Source: Escherichia coli (lineage in GTDB: Bacteria; Pseudomonadota; Gammaproteobacteria; Enterobacterales; Enterobacteriaceae). Taken from it: a stretch of 64,000 nt of DNA. Position 1 is the stretch's first letter. Each line of letters opens with the position of its first letter. The translations under genes were made by a program, and so were the position numbers. Where the stretch lies: NCBI RefSeq assembly GCF_050320075.1, contig NZ_CP190018.1. One strand, 5' to 3'. Below the pieces are notes generated by a model. The model was not told the DNA's origin, ran no database searches, and saw only the letters and a program-made list of their open reading frames with translations. Shown here one piece after another: positions 4,325 through 42,912 of this stretch.

Positions 4325-12307
<7,983 letters not shown>

Positions 12308-13776: not shown

Positions 13777-13828
13777 AAATTCAATCACTTATACATCATT
13801 AAGTCAGTGACAAAAATCACACTTGGAA

Positions 13829-14854
13829 TTACTTGGAATATTTTCTTGGAATATTTTCAGGTAACGGGACATCAAGTGTCGGTGAAACTTTAACCTTCCT
13901 GTCATAGATTAGCACTTGCCCCTCGGTTTTGTGACCAGAGAAAAGTTGCTTATCCCGACTGCTTCCTTCATAGTCTGAAATTCCTTTCGCCTTCAGATCA
14001 TGAAAGGTGAAGTCGGTTAAAATACCTGAAATTTTGCCTGCGCGATTTCTTGCTTCTACCCACATTTCGTTAAAGCCTTTGTACATATATCGGTTGCCGT
14101 ATTGATTGCTGATTACATAGGCGGATGTTGGTAACTGTTTTGCTTTTTCGATCGCCGCCTGTAATCGTGGACTCCATGCTTTTATCTGTTTTTTTCCTGT
14201 TTTCCCTTGCTGGATAAAGATCCCGTCGTTTCCAATCTGCTCCCATTTCAGCGATAACACATCGGAAACCCTCGCTGCACACAGATAGGCAATTTCCATT
14301 GCGATAAAAACAGGAAGAGGTGCAACGCTTAATACTGCCTGGTATTCTTTGTCGGTTACATATCGTTCGCGGTTTTTGGCCTTGAATTTACTTACACCTG
14401 CACATGGGTTAGCCTTCACGTACCCTCGCTCATACCCCCAACTGTAAACGCGGGACATACTGCTTTTTTCATGGTTGGCTTGCGTTTTACTCTGTTCCCC
14501 TCTCTTGTCCATGTATCGACGGATGTGTTCTGGTTTTATGGAATCTGCCGGCACCTTACCGAATACGGCAAGCAACTTTTTTTGATGTTGCAGATAATCT
14601 TTTTGTGTTCTTGGACTGAGGTCACTGTAATAGGCGCTGGCGAGGAATTTTTCCCACAAGCGACCGAATGTCATTGCACGATCGCGATTATTTACAGTTT
14701 CCTCATACTTTTTCCATAAAGCAGCTAAACCATCCTTGATGGCGGTTAGTGTTACAGATTCTCTGGATGTTGGTTTCCATACATAACTATATTTATTTGG
14801 GTATACATTTGGAGGTAATTTTTCGTGTTCAGGATTTTTCCTTCGTCTTCCCAT
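13829..14854 (-). CDS. int: Phage integrase, tyrosine recombinase
   Basis: 341-aa ORF immediately adjacent to tRNA att site; typical lambdoid Int length and position. Confidence 0.8.
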   Translation of the reverse strand: MGRRRKNPEHEKLPPNVYPNKYSYVWKPTSRESVTLTAIKDGLAALWKKYEETVNNRDRAMTFGRLWEKFLASAYYSDLSPRTQKDYLQHQKKLLAVFGKVPADSIKPEHIRRYMDKRGEQSKTQANHEKSSMSRVYSWGYERGYVKANPCAGVSKFKAKNRERYVTDKEYQAVLSVAPLPVFIAMEIAYLCAARVSDVLSLKWEQIGNDGIFIQQGKTGKKQIKAWSPRLQAAIEKAKQLPTSAYVISNQYGNRYMYKGFNEMWVEARNRAGKISGILTDFTFHDLKAKGISDYEGSSRDKQLFSGHKTEGQVLIYDRKVKVSPTLDVPLPENIPRKYSK

Positions 14855-37440: not shown

Positions 37441-38740
37441 TCTCCCGCATATTGCCAGCATGGCTTTTAATGAGCCGCTGATGCTTGAACCCGCCTATGC
37501 GCGGGTTTTCTTTTGTGCGCTTGCAGGCCAGCTTGGGATCAGCCGCCTGACGGATGCAGTATCCGGCGACAGCCTGACTGCCGGAGAGGCACCCGCGGCG
37601 CTGGCGTTATCCGGTGATGATGACGGACCACGACAGGCCCGCAGTTATCAGGTCATGAACGGCATCGCCGTGCTGCCGGTGTCCGGTACGCTGGTCAGCC
37701 GGACGCGGGCGCTGCAGCCGTATTCGGGAATGACCGGTTACAACGGCATTATCGCCCGTCTGCAACAGGCTGCCAGCGATCCGATGGTGGACGGCATTCT
37801 GCTGGATATGGACACACCGGGCGGGATGGTGGCGGGAGCATTTGACTGTGCTGACATCATCGCCCGTGTGCGAGACATAAAACCGGTATGGGCGCTGGCC
37901 AACGACATGAACTGCAGTGCAGGTCAGCTGCTTGCCAGCGCCGCCTCCCGGCGTCTGGTCACGCAGACCGCCCGGACAGGCTCCATCGGCGTCATGATGG
38001 CTCACAGTAATTACGGTGCTGCGCTGGAGAAACAGGGCGTGGAAATCACGCTGATTTACAGCGGCAGCCATAAGGTGGATGGCAACCCCTACAGCCATCT
38101 ACCGGATGATGTCCGGGAAACACTGCAGTCCCGGATGGATGCAACCCGCCGGATGTTTGCACAGAAGGTGTCGGCATATACCGGCCTGTCCGTGCAGGCT
38201 GTGCTGGATACCGAGGCTGCAGTGTACAGCGGTCAGGAGGCCATTGATGCCGGACTGGCTGATGAACTTGTGAACAGTACCGATGCGATCACCGTCATGC
38301 GTGATGCACTGGATGCACGTAAATCCCGTCTCTCAGGAGGGCGAATGACCAAAGAGACTCAATCAACAACTGTTTCAGCCACTGCTTCGCAGGCTGACGT
38401 TACTGGCGTGGTGCAAGCGACGGAGGGCGAGAACGCCAGCGCTGCGCAGCCGGACGTGAACGCGCAGATCACCGCAGCGGTTGCGGCAGAAAACAGTCGC
38501 ATTATGGGGATCCTCAACTGTGAGGAGGCTCACGGACGCGAAGAACAGGCATGCGTGCTGGCCGAAACCCCTGGTATGACCGTGGAAACGGCCCGCCGTA
38601 TTCTGGCCGCAGCACCACAGAGTGCACAGACGCGCAGTGACACTGCGCTGGATCGTCTGATGCAGGGGGCACCGGCACCGCTGGCTGCAGGTAACCCGGC
38701 ATCTGATGCCGTTAACGATTTGCTGAACACACCAGTGTAA
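37421..38740 (+). CDS. C: Head maturation protease / scaffold C
   Basis: GTG start overlapping B; 439 aa, same length as lambda gpC; ORF track shows longer frame 37286..38740. Confidence 0.85.
38345..38740 (+). CDS. nu3: Scaffolding protein Nu3 (in-frame internal start within C)
   Basis: ATG 38345 in C frame, MTKETQSTTVS...; lambda arrangement. Confidence 0.5.
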   Translation: MTKETQSTTVSATASQADVTGVVQATEGENASAAQPDVNAQITAAVAAENSRIMGILNCEEAHGREEQACVLAETPGMTVETARRILAAAPQSAQTRSDTALDRLMQGAPAPLAAGNPASDAVNDLLNTPV

Positions 38741-38749
38741 GGGATGTTT

Positions 38750-39082
38750 ATGACGAGCAAAGAAACCTTTACCCATTACCAGCCGCTGGGCAACAGTGAC
38801 CCGGCTCATACCGCAACCGCGCCCGGCGGATTGAGTGCGAAAGCGCCTGCAATGACCCCGCTGATGCTGGACACCTCCACCCGTAAGCTGGTTGCGTGGG
38901 ATGGCACCACCGACGGTGCTGCCGTTGGCATTCTTGCAGTTGCTGCTGACCAGACCAGCACCACACTGACGTTCTACAAGTCCGGCACGTTCCGTTATGA
39001 GGATGTGCTCTGGCCGGAGGCTGCCAGCGACGAGACGAAAAAACGGACCGCGTTTGCCGGAACGGCAATCAGCATCGTTTAA
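38750..39082 (+). CDS. D: Head decoration protein D
   Basis: 110 aa [12 protein letters not shown]..., lambda gpD-like. Confidence 0.9.
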
Positions 39083-39229
39083 CTTTACCCTTCATCACTA
39101 AAGGCCGCCTGTGCGGCTTTTTTTACGGGATTTTTTTTATGTCGATGTACACAACCGCCCAGCTGCTGGCGGCAAATGAGCAGAAATTTAAGTTTGATCG
39201 TAAGCGACTCGTCAGAACCGTATTGATAT

Positions 39230-40801
39230 TTACTGAGAGCTCAGATCAACTTTCCAGGGCAACAGATCGCGTACCCGGTTTGCCGGCCAGTCCTGGATAT
39301 GTTCAATGACGTAACGCAGCCACTTTTCTGGCTCCACATTGTTCAGACGGCATGTGCCGATCAGCGAGTACAACACCGCCGCATGTTCACCACCGCTGTC
39401 GGAACCCGCGAACATCCAGTTTTTCCGGCCTACGGCCACTCCCCGTAAGGCGTTCTCTGCGATGTTGTTGTCGATTTCCACCCAGCCATTACTGCAGTAC
39501 ACGTTCAGTGCATCCCACTGTTTCAGCAGGTATGCGAACGCTTTTGCCGTATCTGAGTGACGCGACAGTGTTTTCATCTGTTGCTGTATCCAGTCATACA
39601 GTGACTGCATCAGTGGCGCGGCTCTGGCTTTTCTTGCCGCCAGACGCTGTTCTGCTGAACAGCCCCGGACCTCTGCCTCGATGGCATACAGTTCACCGAT
39701 ACGCTGCAGGGCTTCCGTGGTGATGTAGGTGGGCGCTCTTGCATGCACATCGTGGATTTTTCTCCGGGCATGAGCCATACACGCGGCTTCCGTTATTCTG
39801 CCGGATTCGTATAACGCCCGGTAACCACCGTAAGCATCGGCCTGAAGCACACCGCTGTAACCGGCCAGGTGATTTTGTGGATGGATACCTTTCCGGTCCG
39901 GACTGTACGCGAACCAGACCGCCGGGGGCATCTGTGAACCGGCGTTACGGTCATCACGGACGTAGACCCACAGCCGGGCTGTCCGGGTTTTACCGCTGCC
40001 CGGCTCCTGGACCGGGACGGGGATATCATCAGCATGGACTTTACCGGGCATCAGCACATACTGGCGCAGGACGTCATACAGCGGCTCCAGCAGTTCAGCA
40101 ACAGCACCTGTCCAGCGCCCCAGTGTGGCACGGCTCAGCTCCACTCCCTGACGACGGTATATTTCTGACTGGCGGTATAACGGCAGATGGTCTGCATATT
40201 TCCCGGTGACAACATGGGCCAGAAGCCCCGCTCCGGCATAACTGCGTGCAATGGGTTTTGAAGGTACTGGTGCCTGCACGATATGGTCGCACCGGCAACA
40301 GGCCTGTTTCGGACGTTGTGTTTCGATAACCTTAAAGGCGCTGCTGATAAGCTCCAGTTGCTCTGACACATCACATCCCAGAGAACTGAGTTCACCACCA
40401 CAGGCAGGACAGCATTCCTCTTCCGGCCGGATAACCCGGGTTTCACGGGGAAGTGAGGCCGGTAACGGTTTACGGGCTGAAGACTGGCGCAGGGCGGATG
40501 GCAGTACCGGGTCATATTGCTCACCCAGCGTTTCCGCCATTTCTTCCTGAAGTGCGCTGATTCGCTCCTGTGCTTCCTGTATCTGCCGTTCGGTTTTTGC
40601 ACGAAGTTTTTCTGAGCTTTTACCGAACTGCATACGTTGCAGTTTCGCAACCAGCGCCTTCAGCCGGTTGATTTCGGAAGCATAAGCCGCCACCCGCTGT
40701 GAGAGCAGGCGGTTGTATTCAGCCATCTGGCGGATGGTGTCCTGTTGCGTCTGCAACAGTGCCCGCAGGCGGGCGTTCTCATGAGCAAGTGAGGTGTCCA
40801 T
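39230..40801 (-). CDS. IS66-family transposase (TnpC)
   Basis: 523 aa with coiled-coil N-terminus, Cys-rich zinc motif and DDE core. Confidence 0.85.
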
Positions 40802-40820
40802 ATCCTCACTTTACAACGGG

Positions 40821-41168
40821 TTATATGCGGATTCCAGCGCGTTCCGTTCGTTTCGGGTGCTTCCAGTTGATACCTTCAAGAAGCATGGATAACTGAGCCG
40901 GAGTAAGGTGCACCTTGCCGTCACGGGTGACTGGCCAGACGAAGCGGCCCCGCTCCAGGCGTTTGGTGAAGAGGCACAGTCCGTCACTGTCAGCCCACAA
41001 CACTTTTATCTGGTCACCCCGGCGTCCGCGGAAGATGAACAGGTGTCCGGAGAACGGGTCATCCTTCAGGACGTTCTGAACTTTTGATGCCAGGCCGTTA
41101 AAGCCATTTCGCATATCGGTGATACCTGCAACCAGCCAGATACGCGAACCTGCAGGGAGAGATATCAT
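40821..41168 (-). CDS. IS66 Orf2 (TnpB)
   Basis: 115 aa, conserved IS66 accessory protein. Confidence 0.8.
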   Translation of the reverse strand: MISLPAGSRIWLVAGITDMRNGFNGLASKVQNVLKDDPFSGHLFIFRGRRGDQIKVLWADSDGLCLFTKRLERGRFVWPVTRDGKVHLTPAQLSMLLEGINWKHPKRTERAGIRI

Positions 41169-41845
41169 CAGTGGCTGCTCCCTTTTATTTCGCGGATAAG
41201 TGTCTGTAATAACGCCGGCGTCAGTTTACCTTTAAGCCTGAGAGTTCCGGCCGGCAGAACCAGCTCACAACACAGACTGTCGGACGGTGTATTTATCTGC
41301 TCTGGTTCCTGTGCGGGGGCCGGGATTTTATTATCCGGCTCCGGCGTTAACGTCACGGGAAGCAGTGCCGGCATATTTTTTCCGGAAGGCAGCAGGCCAC
41401 CTTTCCGGTATTGATGGCGCCAGTTGAAGAGCAGGTTATCGTTGATTCCGTTTTCCCGGGCGATCTGCGCCACACAGGCTCCGGGCTGCAGTGACTGCTC
41501 CACTAAGGCGATTTTAAACTCATAAGGGAAGTTGGGCCGCCGGGGACGTTTTTTTACCACGGGGGCTTCGGATATAACGGTGCTTTCAGGACGTACGACT
41601 GGTACCGTGGAAAATTGTCCGTAAAGGCAGGCATCAAGTTCCTGCTCCGACATGCCTGCGGGCAAAGGCCACGAAAGGCCAGCTCTCCGAAAGCGCACGA
41701 ACATACTACAAACTGTTGATTTTGGTACACCCAGGCGACGCCCGGCCACAACCCGGGGTAAATGTTCTTCAAAGTGAAGACGTAAAGCTTCAGTGATCCA
41801 GGTCCGGTGTTTCATACGATAGTGTCCATTAAAAATGATGGACAT
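41168..41845 (-). CDS. IS66 Orf1 (TnpA-like), possibly from internal start
   Basis: 225-aa ORF immediately upstream of Orf2. Confidence 0.6.
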   Translation of the reverse strand: MSIIFNGHYRMKHRTWITEALRLHFEEHLPRVVAGRRLGVPKSTVCSMFVRFRRAGLSWPLPAGMSEQELDACLYGQFSTVPVVRPESTVISEAPVVKKRPRRPNFPYEFKIALVEQSLQPGACVAQIARENGINDNLLFNWRHQYRKGGLLPSGKNMPALLPVTLTPEPDNKIPAPAQEPEQINTPSDSLCCELVLPAGTLRLKGKLTPALLQTLIREIKGSSH

Positions 41846-42912
41846 TATTTTTGTAGAGCCGGAGGAAACAGACCAGACGGTTTAAATGAGCCGGTTACGT
41901 TTGATCCGCTGTTTCTGCGTCTCTTTTTCCGTGAGAGCTATCCCTTCACCACGGAGAAAGTCTATCTCTCACAAATTCCGGGACTGGTAAACATAGCGCT
42001 GTACGTTTCGCCGATTGTTTCCGGTGAGGTTATCCGTTCCCGTGGCGGCTCCACCTCTGAATTTACGCCGGGATATGTCAAGCCGAAGCATGAAGTGAAT
42101 CCGCAGATGACCCTGCGTCGCCTGCCGGATGAAGATCCGCAGAATCTGGCGGACCCGGCTTACCGCCGCCGTCGCATCATCCTGCAGAACATGCGTGACG
42201 AAGAGCTGGCCATTGCTCAGGTCGAAGAGATGCAGGCAGTTTCTGCCGTGCTCAAGGGCAAATACACCATGACCGGTGAAGCCTTCGATCCGGTTGAGGT
42301 GGATATGGGCCGCAGTGAGGCGAATAACATCACGCAGTCCGGCGGCACGGAGTGGAGCAAGCGTGACAAGTCCACGTATGACCCGACCGACGATATCGAA
42401 GCCTACGCGCTGAACGCCAGCGGAGTGGTGAATATCATCGTGTTTGATCCGAAAGGCTGGGCGCTGTTCCGTTCCTTCAAAGCCGTCAGGGAGAAGCTGG
42501 ATACTCGTCGCGGCTCTCATTCCGAGCTGGAGACAGCGGTGAAAGACCTGGGCAAAGCGGTGTCCTACAAGGGGATGTATGGCGATGTGGCCATCGTCGT
42601 GTATTCCGGACAGTACGTGGAAAACGGCGTCAAAAAGAACTTCCTGCCGGACAACACGATGGTGCTGGGGAACACTCAGGCACGCGGTCTGCGCACCTAT
42701 GGCTGCATTCAGGATGCGGACGCACAGCGCGAAGGCATTAACTCCTCTGCCCGTTACCCGAAAAACTGGGTGACCACCGGCGATCCGGCGCGTGAGTTCA
42801 CCATGATTCAGTCAGCACCGCTGATGCTGCTGGCTGACCCTGATGAGTTCGTGTCCGTACAACTGGCGTAATCGTGGCCCTTCGGGGCCATTTTCTCTCT
42901 GTGGAGGAGTCC

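Follow-up and report, generated by a model that had tools for sequence, protein, structure and literature searches.

The mechanism of IS66-family transposition is, to our knowledge, little characterized. ISCro1 belongs to this family; it was first catalogued in Citrobacter rodentium and is common across E. coli. Insertion of an IS is a routine route of prophage decay. The element described here shares with many annotated copies of ISCro1 its nucleotide sequence, and with ISCro1 the gene set tnpA-tnpB-tnpC, GTAA-type ends and an 8-bp duplication. In the literature that we searched, no target preference or capsid-gene hot spot was found reported for ISCro1 or the IS66 family, and the sole related report concerns the region upstream of afaA in ST131, described as an IS "hotspot" (PMC8764528). 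A different kind of mobile element, the helper-embedded PICI, integrates in the lambdoid capsid gene E at codon 80 (E:Phage_cap_E:80; Mageeney et al. 2023, PMC10111431). PICIs use a tyrosine integrase, are cooriented with the late genes and excise on induction. The locus described here, a prophage in which E is split, can be compared with the IS-inactivated cryptic lambdoid prophages of E. coli.

The stretch of E. coli DNA analyzed here (64,000 nucleotides; the window) carries one complete ISCro1 within E, with its transposition genes antisense to E (Table 1). The element had been assigned to the IS66 family in the original prediction, and the assignment held, as all three of its proteins exceeded the NCBIfam cutoffs: tnpC scored 477.9 bits against transpos_IS66 (cutoff, 180; residues 106 to 501 of 523), tnpB scored 128.9 bits (cutoff, 50), and tnpA scored 295.8 bits (cutoff, 150). 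The gene for TnpC, a DDE transposase of the IS66 type, is preceded on the same strand by tnpA and tnpB, and the three are close-set: tnpA and tnpB overlap, stop on start, at 41168, and tnpC begins 19 nt past the end of tnpB. The element ends, GTAAGCGACTC... and ...GAGCCGGTTAC, are GTAA-type imperfect terminal inverted repeats of approximately 20 to 30 bp, in which GTAAGCGACTC... and GTAACCGGCTC... agree at 16 of 22 terminal positions and at 18 of 30. Moreover, a perfect 8-bp duplication, GTTTGATC, directly abuts both ends of the element (39200-41898), and the ends, duplication and coordinates given in the original prediction were correct to the base. Duplications of 8 bp were likewise perfect at 12 of the 13 other distinct ISCro1 insertion sites examined. 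The element is 100% identical over its full 2,699 bp to many E. coli copies annotated as ISCro1 family, for which NCBI names the transposase "IS66-like element ISCro1 family transposase," and a near-complete copy is present in 1,492 of 5,426 E. coli genomes. Relative to known ISCro1, the element itself is no different, and its location alone is particular.

Table 1. Features of the split capsid gene and the inserted element (window coordinates)
Feature	Position	Strand	Basis or remark
Prophage	~13.8-59.6 kb
D, head decoration gene, upstream neighbor	38744..39082	+	ORF; equivalent RefSeq locus annotated "head decoration protein"
D-E intergenic GC hairpin, then T-run	39103..39124	+	Read from sequence
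E, 5' fragment, codons 1-20 plus 1 nt	39139..39199	+	ORF list, sequence
Left arm (GCAGAAA) of 7-bp inverted repeat centered on target duplication	39180..39186	+
Left copy of 8-bp target-site duplication	39192..39199		GTTTGATC
ISCro1 (IS66 family), complete, 2,699 bp	39200..41898	-	Transposition genes antisense to E
Terminal inverted repeat, tnpC-proximal end	39200..39221		GTAAGCGACTCGTCAGAACCGT
tnpC, IS66-family DDE transposase, 523 aa	39230..40801	-	NF033517
tnpB, IS66 accessory protein, 115 aa	40821..41168	-	NF033819
tnpA, IS66-like accessory protein, 225 aa	41168..41845	-	NF038385
ORF that begins within the IS and enters E, GTG, 354 aa	41807..42871	+	Mechanical ORF; no evidence of expression
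Terminal inverted repeat, tnpA-proximal end	41877..41898		Reverse complement GTAACCGGCTCATTTAAACCGT
Right copy of 8-bp target-site duplication	41899..41906		GTTTGATC
E, 3' remnant, codons 19/21 to 341 plus stop, without own start codon	41899..42871	+
Right arm (TTTCTGC) of the inverted repeat	41912..41918	+

The interrupted gene encodes a lambda gpE-type (HK97-fold) major capsid protein, as indicated by full-length homology and a lambda-like head gene order. E codons 1 to 20 (39139-39198) are of the lambda type (MSMYTTAQLLAANEQKFKFD), and the reading frame is regained after the IS, where the duplication re-creates codons F19 and D20 at 41900-41905. In silico removal of the IS and one duplicate restored an open 1,026-nt ORF of 341 aa, in agreement with the prediction that E breaks off at 39198 and resumes in frame from 41899. 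The repaired product aligned with lambda gpE (PDB 7VI9 chain A) over residues 1 to 341 (E=2e-226) with 6 substitutions, approximately 98% identity. In the split gene, the native start opens a 56-aa ORF (39139-39309) of 20 gpE residues and 36 IS-encoded residues, and the 321 codons downstream of the split are left without a start codon of their own. D precedes E and FI follows it, and the gene order of the prophage is like that of phage lambda (Nu1-A-W-B-C-D-E-FI-FII-Z-U-V-G-T-H...), whereas its early region is Qin/Rac-like (dicB, ydfA-D, hokD) and unlike that of lambda. We note that RefSeq (PGAP) lists 41909-42871, from a CTG, as an intact, nonpseudogene CDS for a 320-aa "major capsid protein." This call results from the automatic choice of a start, and that the 3' remnant of E stands in RefSeq as an intact gene is a matter of annotation quality.

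How E came to be split is simple. ISCro1 is a known IS whose insertion, an ordinary event, leaves this lambdoid prophage with a plain null allele of E, and nothing contradictory to the insertion itself was found. Identical E-IS junctions are present in the independently assembled complete E. coli genomes YZLc1-3 and Ec-U3, which are 99.98 to 99.99% identical to the window over 40 to 64 kb, and the empty E site is intact in 3,188 genomes. We are highly confident in the explanation as a whole, that ISCro1 transposed into E at a recurrent target and left a prophage that alone is head defective. By analogy to the family, TnpC would cut the target strands with an 8-bp stagger, and repair of the staggered cuts would duplicate GTTTGATC. 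With E split after codon 20, the prophage by itself would be unable to build heads unless the IS were excised precisely between the 8-bp repeats, a rare event, or gpE came from another lambdoid prophage. Late transcription under Q antitermination probably continues across the IS and still reaches the tail genes. The prediction that no capsid can be made unless the IS excises likely holds for the prophage alone, but an E query matched two places in YZLc1-3 and Ec-U3, and the second E-like locus, outside the window, could complement gpE in trans. The split E would mark this prophage as head defective, which bears on predicting inducibility or transduction from the genome.

How ISCro1 selects this site is explained in part. 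A weight matrix of 14 positions, built from 192 unrelated ISCro1 flanks, revealed a weak, palindromic preference (G-N-W-T-A-W-N-C, flanked immediately by G/C) with its symmetry centered on the 8-bp duplication, and the E site ranked 183 among 61,233 window positions (top 0.3%, 99.70th percentile). A 24-position matrix put the site in the 99.97th percentile but was discounted for the 14-position one, as its distal columns looked like noise. ISCro1 resembles the palindromic target model of DDE transposons (PMC2577343) in its symmetric preference and in a hot site centered in an inverted repeat. The recurrent target position fits the preference well and lies at the center of the 7-bp inverted repeat. 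The matrix accounts for the coincidence only partly, however, as several positions within 1 kb score just as well but carry no insertion. Two neighboring insertion sites score no better than average. Moreover, the inverted-repeat arm was not enriched at its register relative to other offsets among 193 distinct unrelated flanks from viral and metagenomic contigs. A general rule, TSD-N5-TTTCTGC, had been suggested by BLAST-selected flanks but was rejected by this unbiased set and is retained as a feature of the E site only. A target consensus from the top BLAST matches was likewise rejected as biased, because their high rank came from resemblance of the flanks to the query. A scan of species-representative genomes for the IS end gave a single match, too few for a sample. 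Finally, mimicry of the IS end was considered and set aside; the 8-mer AAATGAGC is common to E and the tnpA-proximal end, with a chance expectation of approximately 0.1 by rough count.

ISCro1 has also inserted at or near this site in other strains. In TUM12368, it sits at the identical nucleotide with the same TSD and orientation in a different prophage, the flanks differ from those of the window at 53 of 2,400 positions, and the IS carries a distinct SNP. In DLI.6n, ETEC H10407 and ABW_A19, it occupies the identical nucleotide in the opposite orientation. Four other strains carry it at -176, -76, -39 and +12 bp from the site. In strain 2EC1, the element lies in the D-E intergenic T-run (39103..39124) with the TSD GCTTTTTT. 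Junction searches found no occupied position in the next 750 bp of E beyond the cluster. For five of six events to fall within 88 bp, P was ~0.0015 if the null was uniform and ~0.01 if it was weighted by the target preference, and total occupancy was approximately 9 genomes versus 4,726 intact sites. ISCro1 apparently has a modest, hitherto unreported insertion hot spot at E. We lean toward the interpretation that E codons 18 to 21 form, with the ~190-bp region of the D-E junction, a genuine hot spot that arises from the weak palindromic preference and a further local feature. The further feature could be the 7-bp inverted repeat centered on the target or bent, T-rich D-E intergenic DNA. If so, ISCro1 has entered at the same phosphodiester bonds on at least two independent occasions, and probably on four or five, with both orientations and more than one prophage represented.

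Alternatively, there may be no hot spot, and homologous recombination within the conserved head genes may have carried one ancestral E::ISCro1 allele per orientation from one lambdoid prophage to another. Lambdoid head modules form a mosaic with ~97% identity, such that double crossovers could bring the IS along, and the ISCro1 copies differ by only 0 to 3 SNPs, so the events are not dated by them. Spread by recombination nonetheless seems unlikely. Insertions in opposite orientations share their phosphodiester bonds and TSD, and at least two of them must therefore be independent. Moreover, the TUM12368 flanks diverge from the window within 44 to 70 bp of the IS on both sides. ABW_A19, ABWA45 and ECONIH5 share one flank haplotype (2 of 2,400 positions differ between the prophage flanks of ABWA45 and ECONIH5), yet no two of their ISCro1 copies agree in both position and orientation, and each copy has its own IS SNP. 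Finally, four further positions are occupied within 190 bp and none in the 750 bp of E that follow. If the hot spot is genuine, ISCro1 would be a recurrent, semispecific inactivator of lambdoid prophage heads, and the poorly studied IS66 family would gain a defined natural target for mechanistic work. Repeated landing at one nucleotide of a highly conserved phage gene offers a rare natural handle on IS66 target choice.

A working capsid protein might still be made from the split gene, either from the GTG at 41807 or from the CTG at 41909 chosen in RefSeq. The ORF predicted to begin within the IS and continue into E is present (41807-42871), its frame is open, and its product would replace gpE residues 1 to 18 with 31 foreign residues. 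PGAP, too, annotates a nonpseudogene CDS. Shine-Dalgarno pairing is weak for the fusion ORF (-3.2 kcal/mol), but weak pairing alone does not rule out translation because pairing at the native E start is also weak by this measure (-4.1 kcal/mol). Production of a functional capsid protein is nevertheless highly improbable. Both starts are non-ATG, and a sequence scan found no sigma-70-like promoter in 38700-42300, such that an outward IS promoter driving the E remnant was rejected as well. Moreover, the products would lack gpE residues 1 to 18 (or 1 to 21), part of the N-terminal strand that pairs with the gpD N terminus and the E-loop of the neighboring subunit; the gpD/E-loop sheet of which this strand is part acts as a staple of the lambda capsid (PMC5701804). 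The PGAP call reflects start selection. With a GTG start, weak pairing and no promoter found, the fusion ORF is real as a reading frame but doubtful as the source of an N-terminally altered capsid protein.

Helper-embedded PICIs, like ISCro1 here, are mobile elements that interrupt the same lambdoid capsid gene, and E is a target common to two unrelated kinds of element: ISCro1 at codons 18 to 21 and PICIs at codon 80. A helper-embedded PICI would be expected to have a tyrosine integrase beside the split late gene, an alpA/primase module, an att identity block and coorientation with the late genes. The insert in the window instead encodes three IS66 proteins only, is bounded by a transposition-type 8-bp duplication and is found in both orientations in other strains. 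The 10-bp att core used by PICIs lies deeper in E, by ~180 bp, and ISCro1, a DDE transposon, differs from PICIs in lacking programmed excision. The insertion might be selected and quasi-regulatory in the manner of a PICI, either because the IS rides the prophage or because the host gains from a disarmed one. Repeated ISCro1 insertion and the use of E by PICIs (the codon 80 junction is in 173 of 5,426 genomes, and PICIs at E were also found in E04 and ABW_A19) are consistent with selection, but we consider it very doubtful. ISCro1 encodes neither an integrase nor an excisionase and lacks any other route to programmed precise excision, it occurs in both orientations, and its occupancy of E is very low. 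Finally, if capsid loss were selected, insertion anywhere in E or in other head genes would do equally well, so selection leaves the concentration in the first 70 nt unaccounted for. A left-junction match in E04 was unrelated, as ISCro1 there interrupts a satellite integrase, and it is the satellite that occupies E.

That the assembler misplaced the IS into a truly intact E is effectively refuted, even though IS copies often cause misassembly and the host lineage carries several ISCro1 copies (junction queries match 6 places in YZLc1-3), because the same junction is present in the independent complete assemblies YZLc1-3 and Ec-U3; the perfect duplication at both ends, the exact in-frame restoration on IS removal and occupancy of the site in four further strains also speak against an artifact. 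We note that PGAP calls the integrase "frameshifted," which was set aside as evidence of a second lesion. The integrase has an unbroken frame of 341 aa in the window, which runs through the presumed catalytic-Tyr region and comes within ~25 nt of where the annotation ends.

The lambdoid prophage's major capsid gene, E, is interrupted after codon 20, leaving the 321 codons that follow without a start codon. Rereading the sequence reproduced exactly what the original prediction had described: the element, its ends, the octamer, and the split E (table). Imperfect GTAA-type inverted repeats bound the element (GTAAGCGACTC... versus the reverse complement GTAACCGGCTC...); they agree at 16 positions among the first 22 and at 18 among the first 30, and an octamer directly abuts each end. 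When the element and one octamer were removed in silico, a 1,026-nt ORF was restored, the 341-aa product of which aligned with phage lambda gpE (PDB 7VI9) over residues 1 to 341 with six substitutions (E=2e-226). Moreover, the full element was 100% identical to copies named "IS66-like element ISCro1 family" by NCBI, and among 5,426 complete E. coli genomes, 1,492 have a copy with at least 80% of the element covered (14,204 matching places overall). We conclude that the gene is lambda-type E and that the element is ISCro1, a catalogued insertion sequence, in an ordinary copy that was probably active recently.

Features of the window and ISCro1 insertions near the D-E junction (insertions in bp relative to position 0, the insertion site in the window; TSD, 8-bp target-site duplication)
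Feature	Position	Strand or orientation	Details
E 5' part	start 39139, coding to 39198	+	lambda-type; encodes MSMYTTAQLLAANEQKFKFD
Inserted element	39200-41898		2,699 bp; sequence reading
Octamer	39192-39199 and 41899-41906		GTTTGATC
tnpA	41845-41168	-	225 aa; NCBIfam IS66 TnpA equivalog, 295.8 bits (cutoff 150)
tnpB	41168-40821	-	115 aa; NCBIfam IS66 TnpB equivalog, 128.9 bits (cutoff 50)
tnpC	40801-39230	-	523 aa; NCBIfam IS66 transposase equivalog, 477.9 bits (cutoff 180)
ORF from native E start	39139-39309	+	56 aa
Fusion ORF	from GTG 41807		354 aa
E 3' remnant	41909-42871		= NZ_CP123240.1 2136180-2137142 = 8960-9922 of retrieved locus L001
Prophage integrase	13804-14854	-	341 aa
Diguanylate cyclase	59671-61002	-	443 aa
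G-run	~27470-27478		between prophage tRNA-Ile and tRNA-Arg
Window, YZLc1-3, Ec-U3	0	same orientation	TSD GTTTGATC
TUM12368	0	same as window	TSD GTTTGATC
DLI.6n, ETEC H10407 (= SEC470), ABW_A19	0	opposite to window	TSD GTTTGATC
ECONIH5	+12	opposite to window	TSD GTTTCTGC
ABWA45	-39 (E codons 6-8)	same as window	TSD AACCGCCC
2EC1	-76 (D-E intergenic T-run; E intact)	same as window	TSD GCTTTTTT
MS 119-7	-176 (3' end of D)	opposite to window	TSD GGAGGCTG

An assembly artifact is effectively excluded by the same ISCro1 junctions in E. coli YZLc1-3 (chicken, China; 99.98% identical to the window) and Ec-U3 (human urine, Burkina Faso; 99.99% identical). As RefSeq annotates the corresponding region, the prophage is ~46 kb, is integrated beside tRNA-Ser/mtfA, and combines a Qin/Rac-like early region (dicB, ydfA-D, hokD) with a lambda-like late operon (Nu1, A, W, B, C, D, E, FI, FII, Z, U, V, G, T, H, M, L, K, I, J, lom, tail fibers). 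In RefSeq/PGAP the E 3' remnant carries no pseudogene label and is listed, from a CTG start, as a complete "major capsid protein" of 320 aa, and the remnants in TUM12368, DLI.6n, and H10407 are likewise annotated as normal capsid coding sequences. That annotation is misleading, and because of it the lesion in E would escape automated prophage-completeness calls.

The original prediction held that the prophage cannot make capsid unless the element excises precisely; the finding is real, and its interpretation is correct. Judging from the sequence, the prophage would be unable to build its own heads, and reversion of E would require precise excision across the 8-bp repeats. Precise excision is rare for DDE elements. 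Q-antiterminated late transcription probably crosses the element, which is antisense to it, so expression of the tail genes may persist. The native E start, in its late-operon context, now opens an ORF of 20 aa of gpE and 36 aa from the end of the element, and the product would presumably be made on induction, with no function implied. The predicted ORF that starts within the element and reads into the E body is present, and its candidacy as a capsid source is weak. A scan of 38700-42300 revealed no sigma-70-like promoter, and the fusion product would be missing gpE's N-terminal strand, which in the lambda capsid forms a four-stranded sheet together with the gpD N terminus and a neighboring E-loop (PMC5701804). 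Shine-Dalgarno pairing at its GTG start is weak (-3.2 kcal/mol) and is not decisive, as the native E start itself reaches only -4.1 when scored in this way. Alternatively, gpE could be supplied in trans, as YZLc1-3 (NZ_CP123240.1) and Ec-U3 (NZ_CM192149.1) each contain, outside the window, a second place matching the E body that is probably another lambdoid prophage.

Prophage decay through insertion sequences is routine, and the window holds an ordinary, already known kind of case, in which a known element has knocked out a prophage gene. What may be new is the repeated use by ISCro1 of the same nucleotide and its surroundings, for which the support is comparative. Junction-spanning queries returned very few genomes, a chimeric opposite-orientation query returned more, and exact mapping placed insertions at five positions, all of them complete 2,699-bp copies with a perfect 8-bp duplication. 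No further ISCro1 insertions were found in either orientation from about -250 to +750 bp, the detection range of the queries, and 3,188 genomes have the empty site intact (4,726 places in total). At least two events are required at position 0 because two orientations occupy the same bonds. Moreover, the prophage that holds the TUM12368 insertion is another lambdoid one: its early region is of the N/cI/cII/DnaB type, it carries iss, and its attachment site is not the same. The flanks of the TUM12368 insertion differ from those of the window at 53 of 2,400 positions, starting 44 to 70 bp from the element on each side, and the elements differ at 1 of 2,699. The prophage flanks of ABWA45 and ECONIH5 differ at 2 of 2,400 positions, and the left-flank haplotype is also found in ABW_A19; in these three strains, ISCro1 differs in position or orientation from one to the next, and each copy has its own SNP. 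The strict minimum is six independent insertions; parsimony favors eight or nine at five positions, four or five of these at the identical nucleotide.

Target preference may account in part for the choice of position 0. Viral and metagenomic contigs scanned for exact element termini yielded an unbiased sample of 193 distinct outward flanks, none at the window's site, and a 14-position weight matrix was built from 192 of them (retrieved loci L020-L219), leaving out the D-E region flank of L093. The preference is weak, and its two halves mirror each other across the duplication (approximately G-N-W-T-A-W-N-C, plus a bias toward G and C 2 to 3 nt outside); no earlier description of it was found in the literature searched. 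Among 61,233 window positions, the matrix placed position 0 at rank 183 (top 0.3%) and the +12 site at rank 150, with the -76 site within the top 1.4%; the scores at -39 and -176 were unremarkable, and several nearby positions with equally good scores were unused. In simulations of the six minimal events across the 1-kb detection range, the probability that five fall within 88 bp was 0.0015 under a uniform null and about 0.01 under a matrix-weighted null, and that of any coincidence was 0.014 and 0.35, respectively. Thus, we attribute much of the exact coincidence at position 0 to the intrinsic preference of ISCro1, which leaves a regional excess around the D-E junction. Position 0 is also the exact center of a perfect inverted repeat, GCAGAAA-N5-GTTTGATC-N5-TTTCTGC, an arrangement found at 8 of ~64,000 window positions. 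The repeat is at most a property of position 0 alone, as its arm was not enriched among the unrelated flanks of the 193-flank sample. Selection for capsid loss is rejected as the cause of the regional excess, as every position in E would be equally effective.

In the literature that could be searched, neither a hot spot in a capsid gene nor a target preference is reported for ISCro1 or for IS66 elements generally, and the sole related remark concerns the region upstream of afaA in ST131, described as an "IS hotspot" (PMC8764528). Helper-embedded PICIs, a different kind of element, also target E and integrate at codon 80 via a 10-bp att core (PMC10111431); the window insert lacks the defining features of such satellites. 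They were met in E04 and ABW_A19 (locus L011), and their junction occurs in 173 of 5,426 genomes. In E04 (NZ_CM143912.1 3247190-3264119, locus L220; also locus L004 5434-5600) and ABW_A19, E is split at ~nt 236-246 by a ~17-kb island encoding an integrase, a primase, an Icd-like protein, its own capsid and decoration genes, and TIR, HEPN, and DUF262 proteins, a position that matches the published site E:Phage_cap_E:80 (PMC10111431). The E04 PICI integrase is itself broken by ISCro1 (TSD TACTAAAG). In 2EC1 (NZ_CP047571.1, locus L003 5175-7873), ISCro1 lies within the T-run after the D-E intergenic hairpin, with the E ORF and start intact. The 2EC1 prophage might still make capsid if Q-antiterminated transcription crosses the element, and if so, it would be a natural test of IS polarity in the late operon.

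Three smaller observations came from comparing the window with YZLc1-3. The G-run is 3 nt shorter in the window, either a length polymorphism or a sequencing artifact. The diguanylate cyclase gene adjoining the prophage is an intact ORF in the window and is annotated as frameshifted in YZLc1-3, where one T is missing at the equivalent of 59830; either the strains differ here or the YZLc1-3 assembly contains a homopolymer sequencing error. Finally, PGAP flags the prophage integrase of YZLc1-3 as frameshifted; the window gene reads in one frame from the annotated start past the presumed catalytic-Tyr region and stops ~25 nt short of the annotated end, so that the effect is confined to the extreme C terminus.
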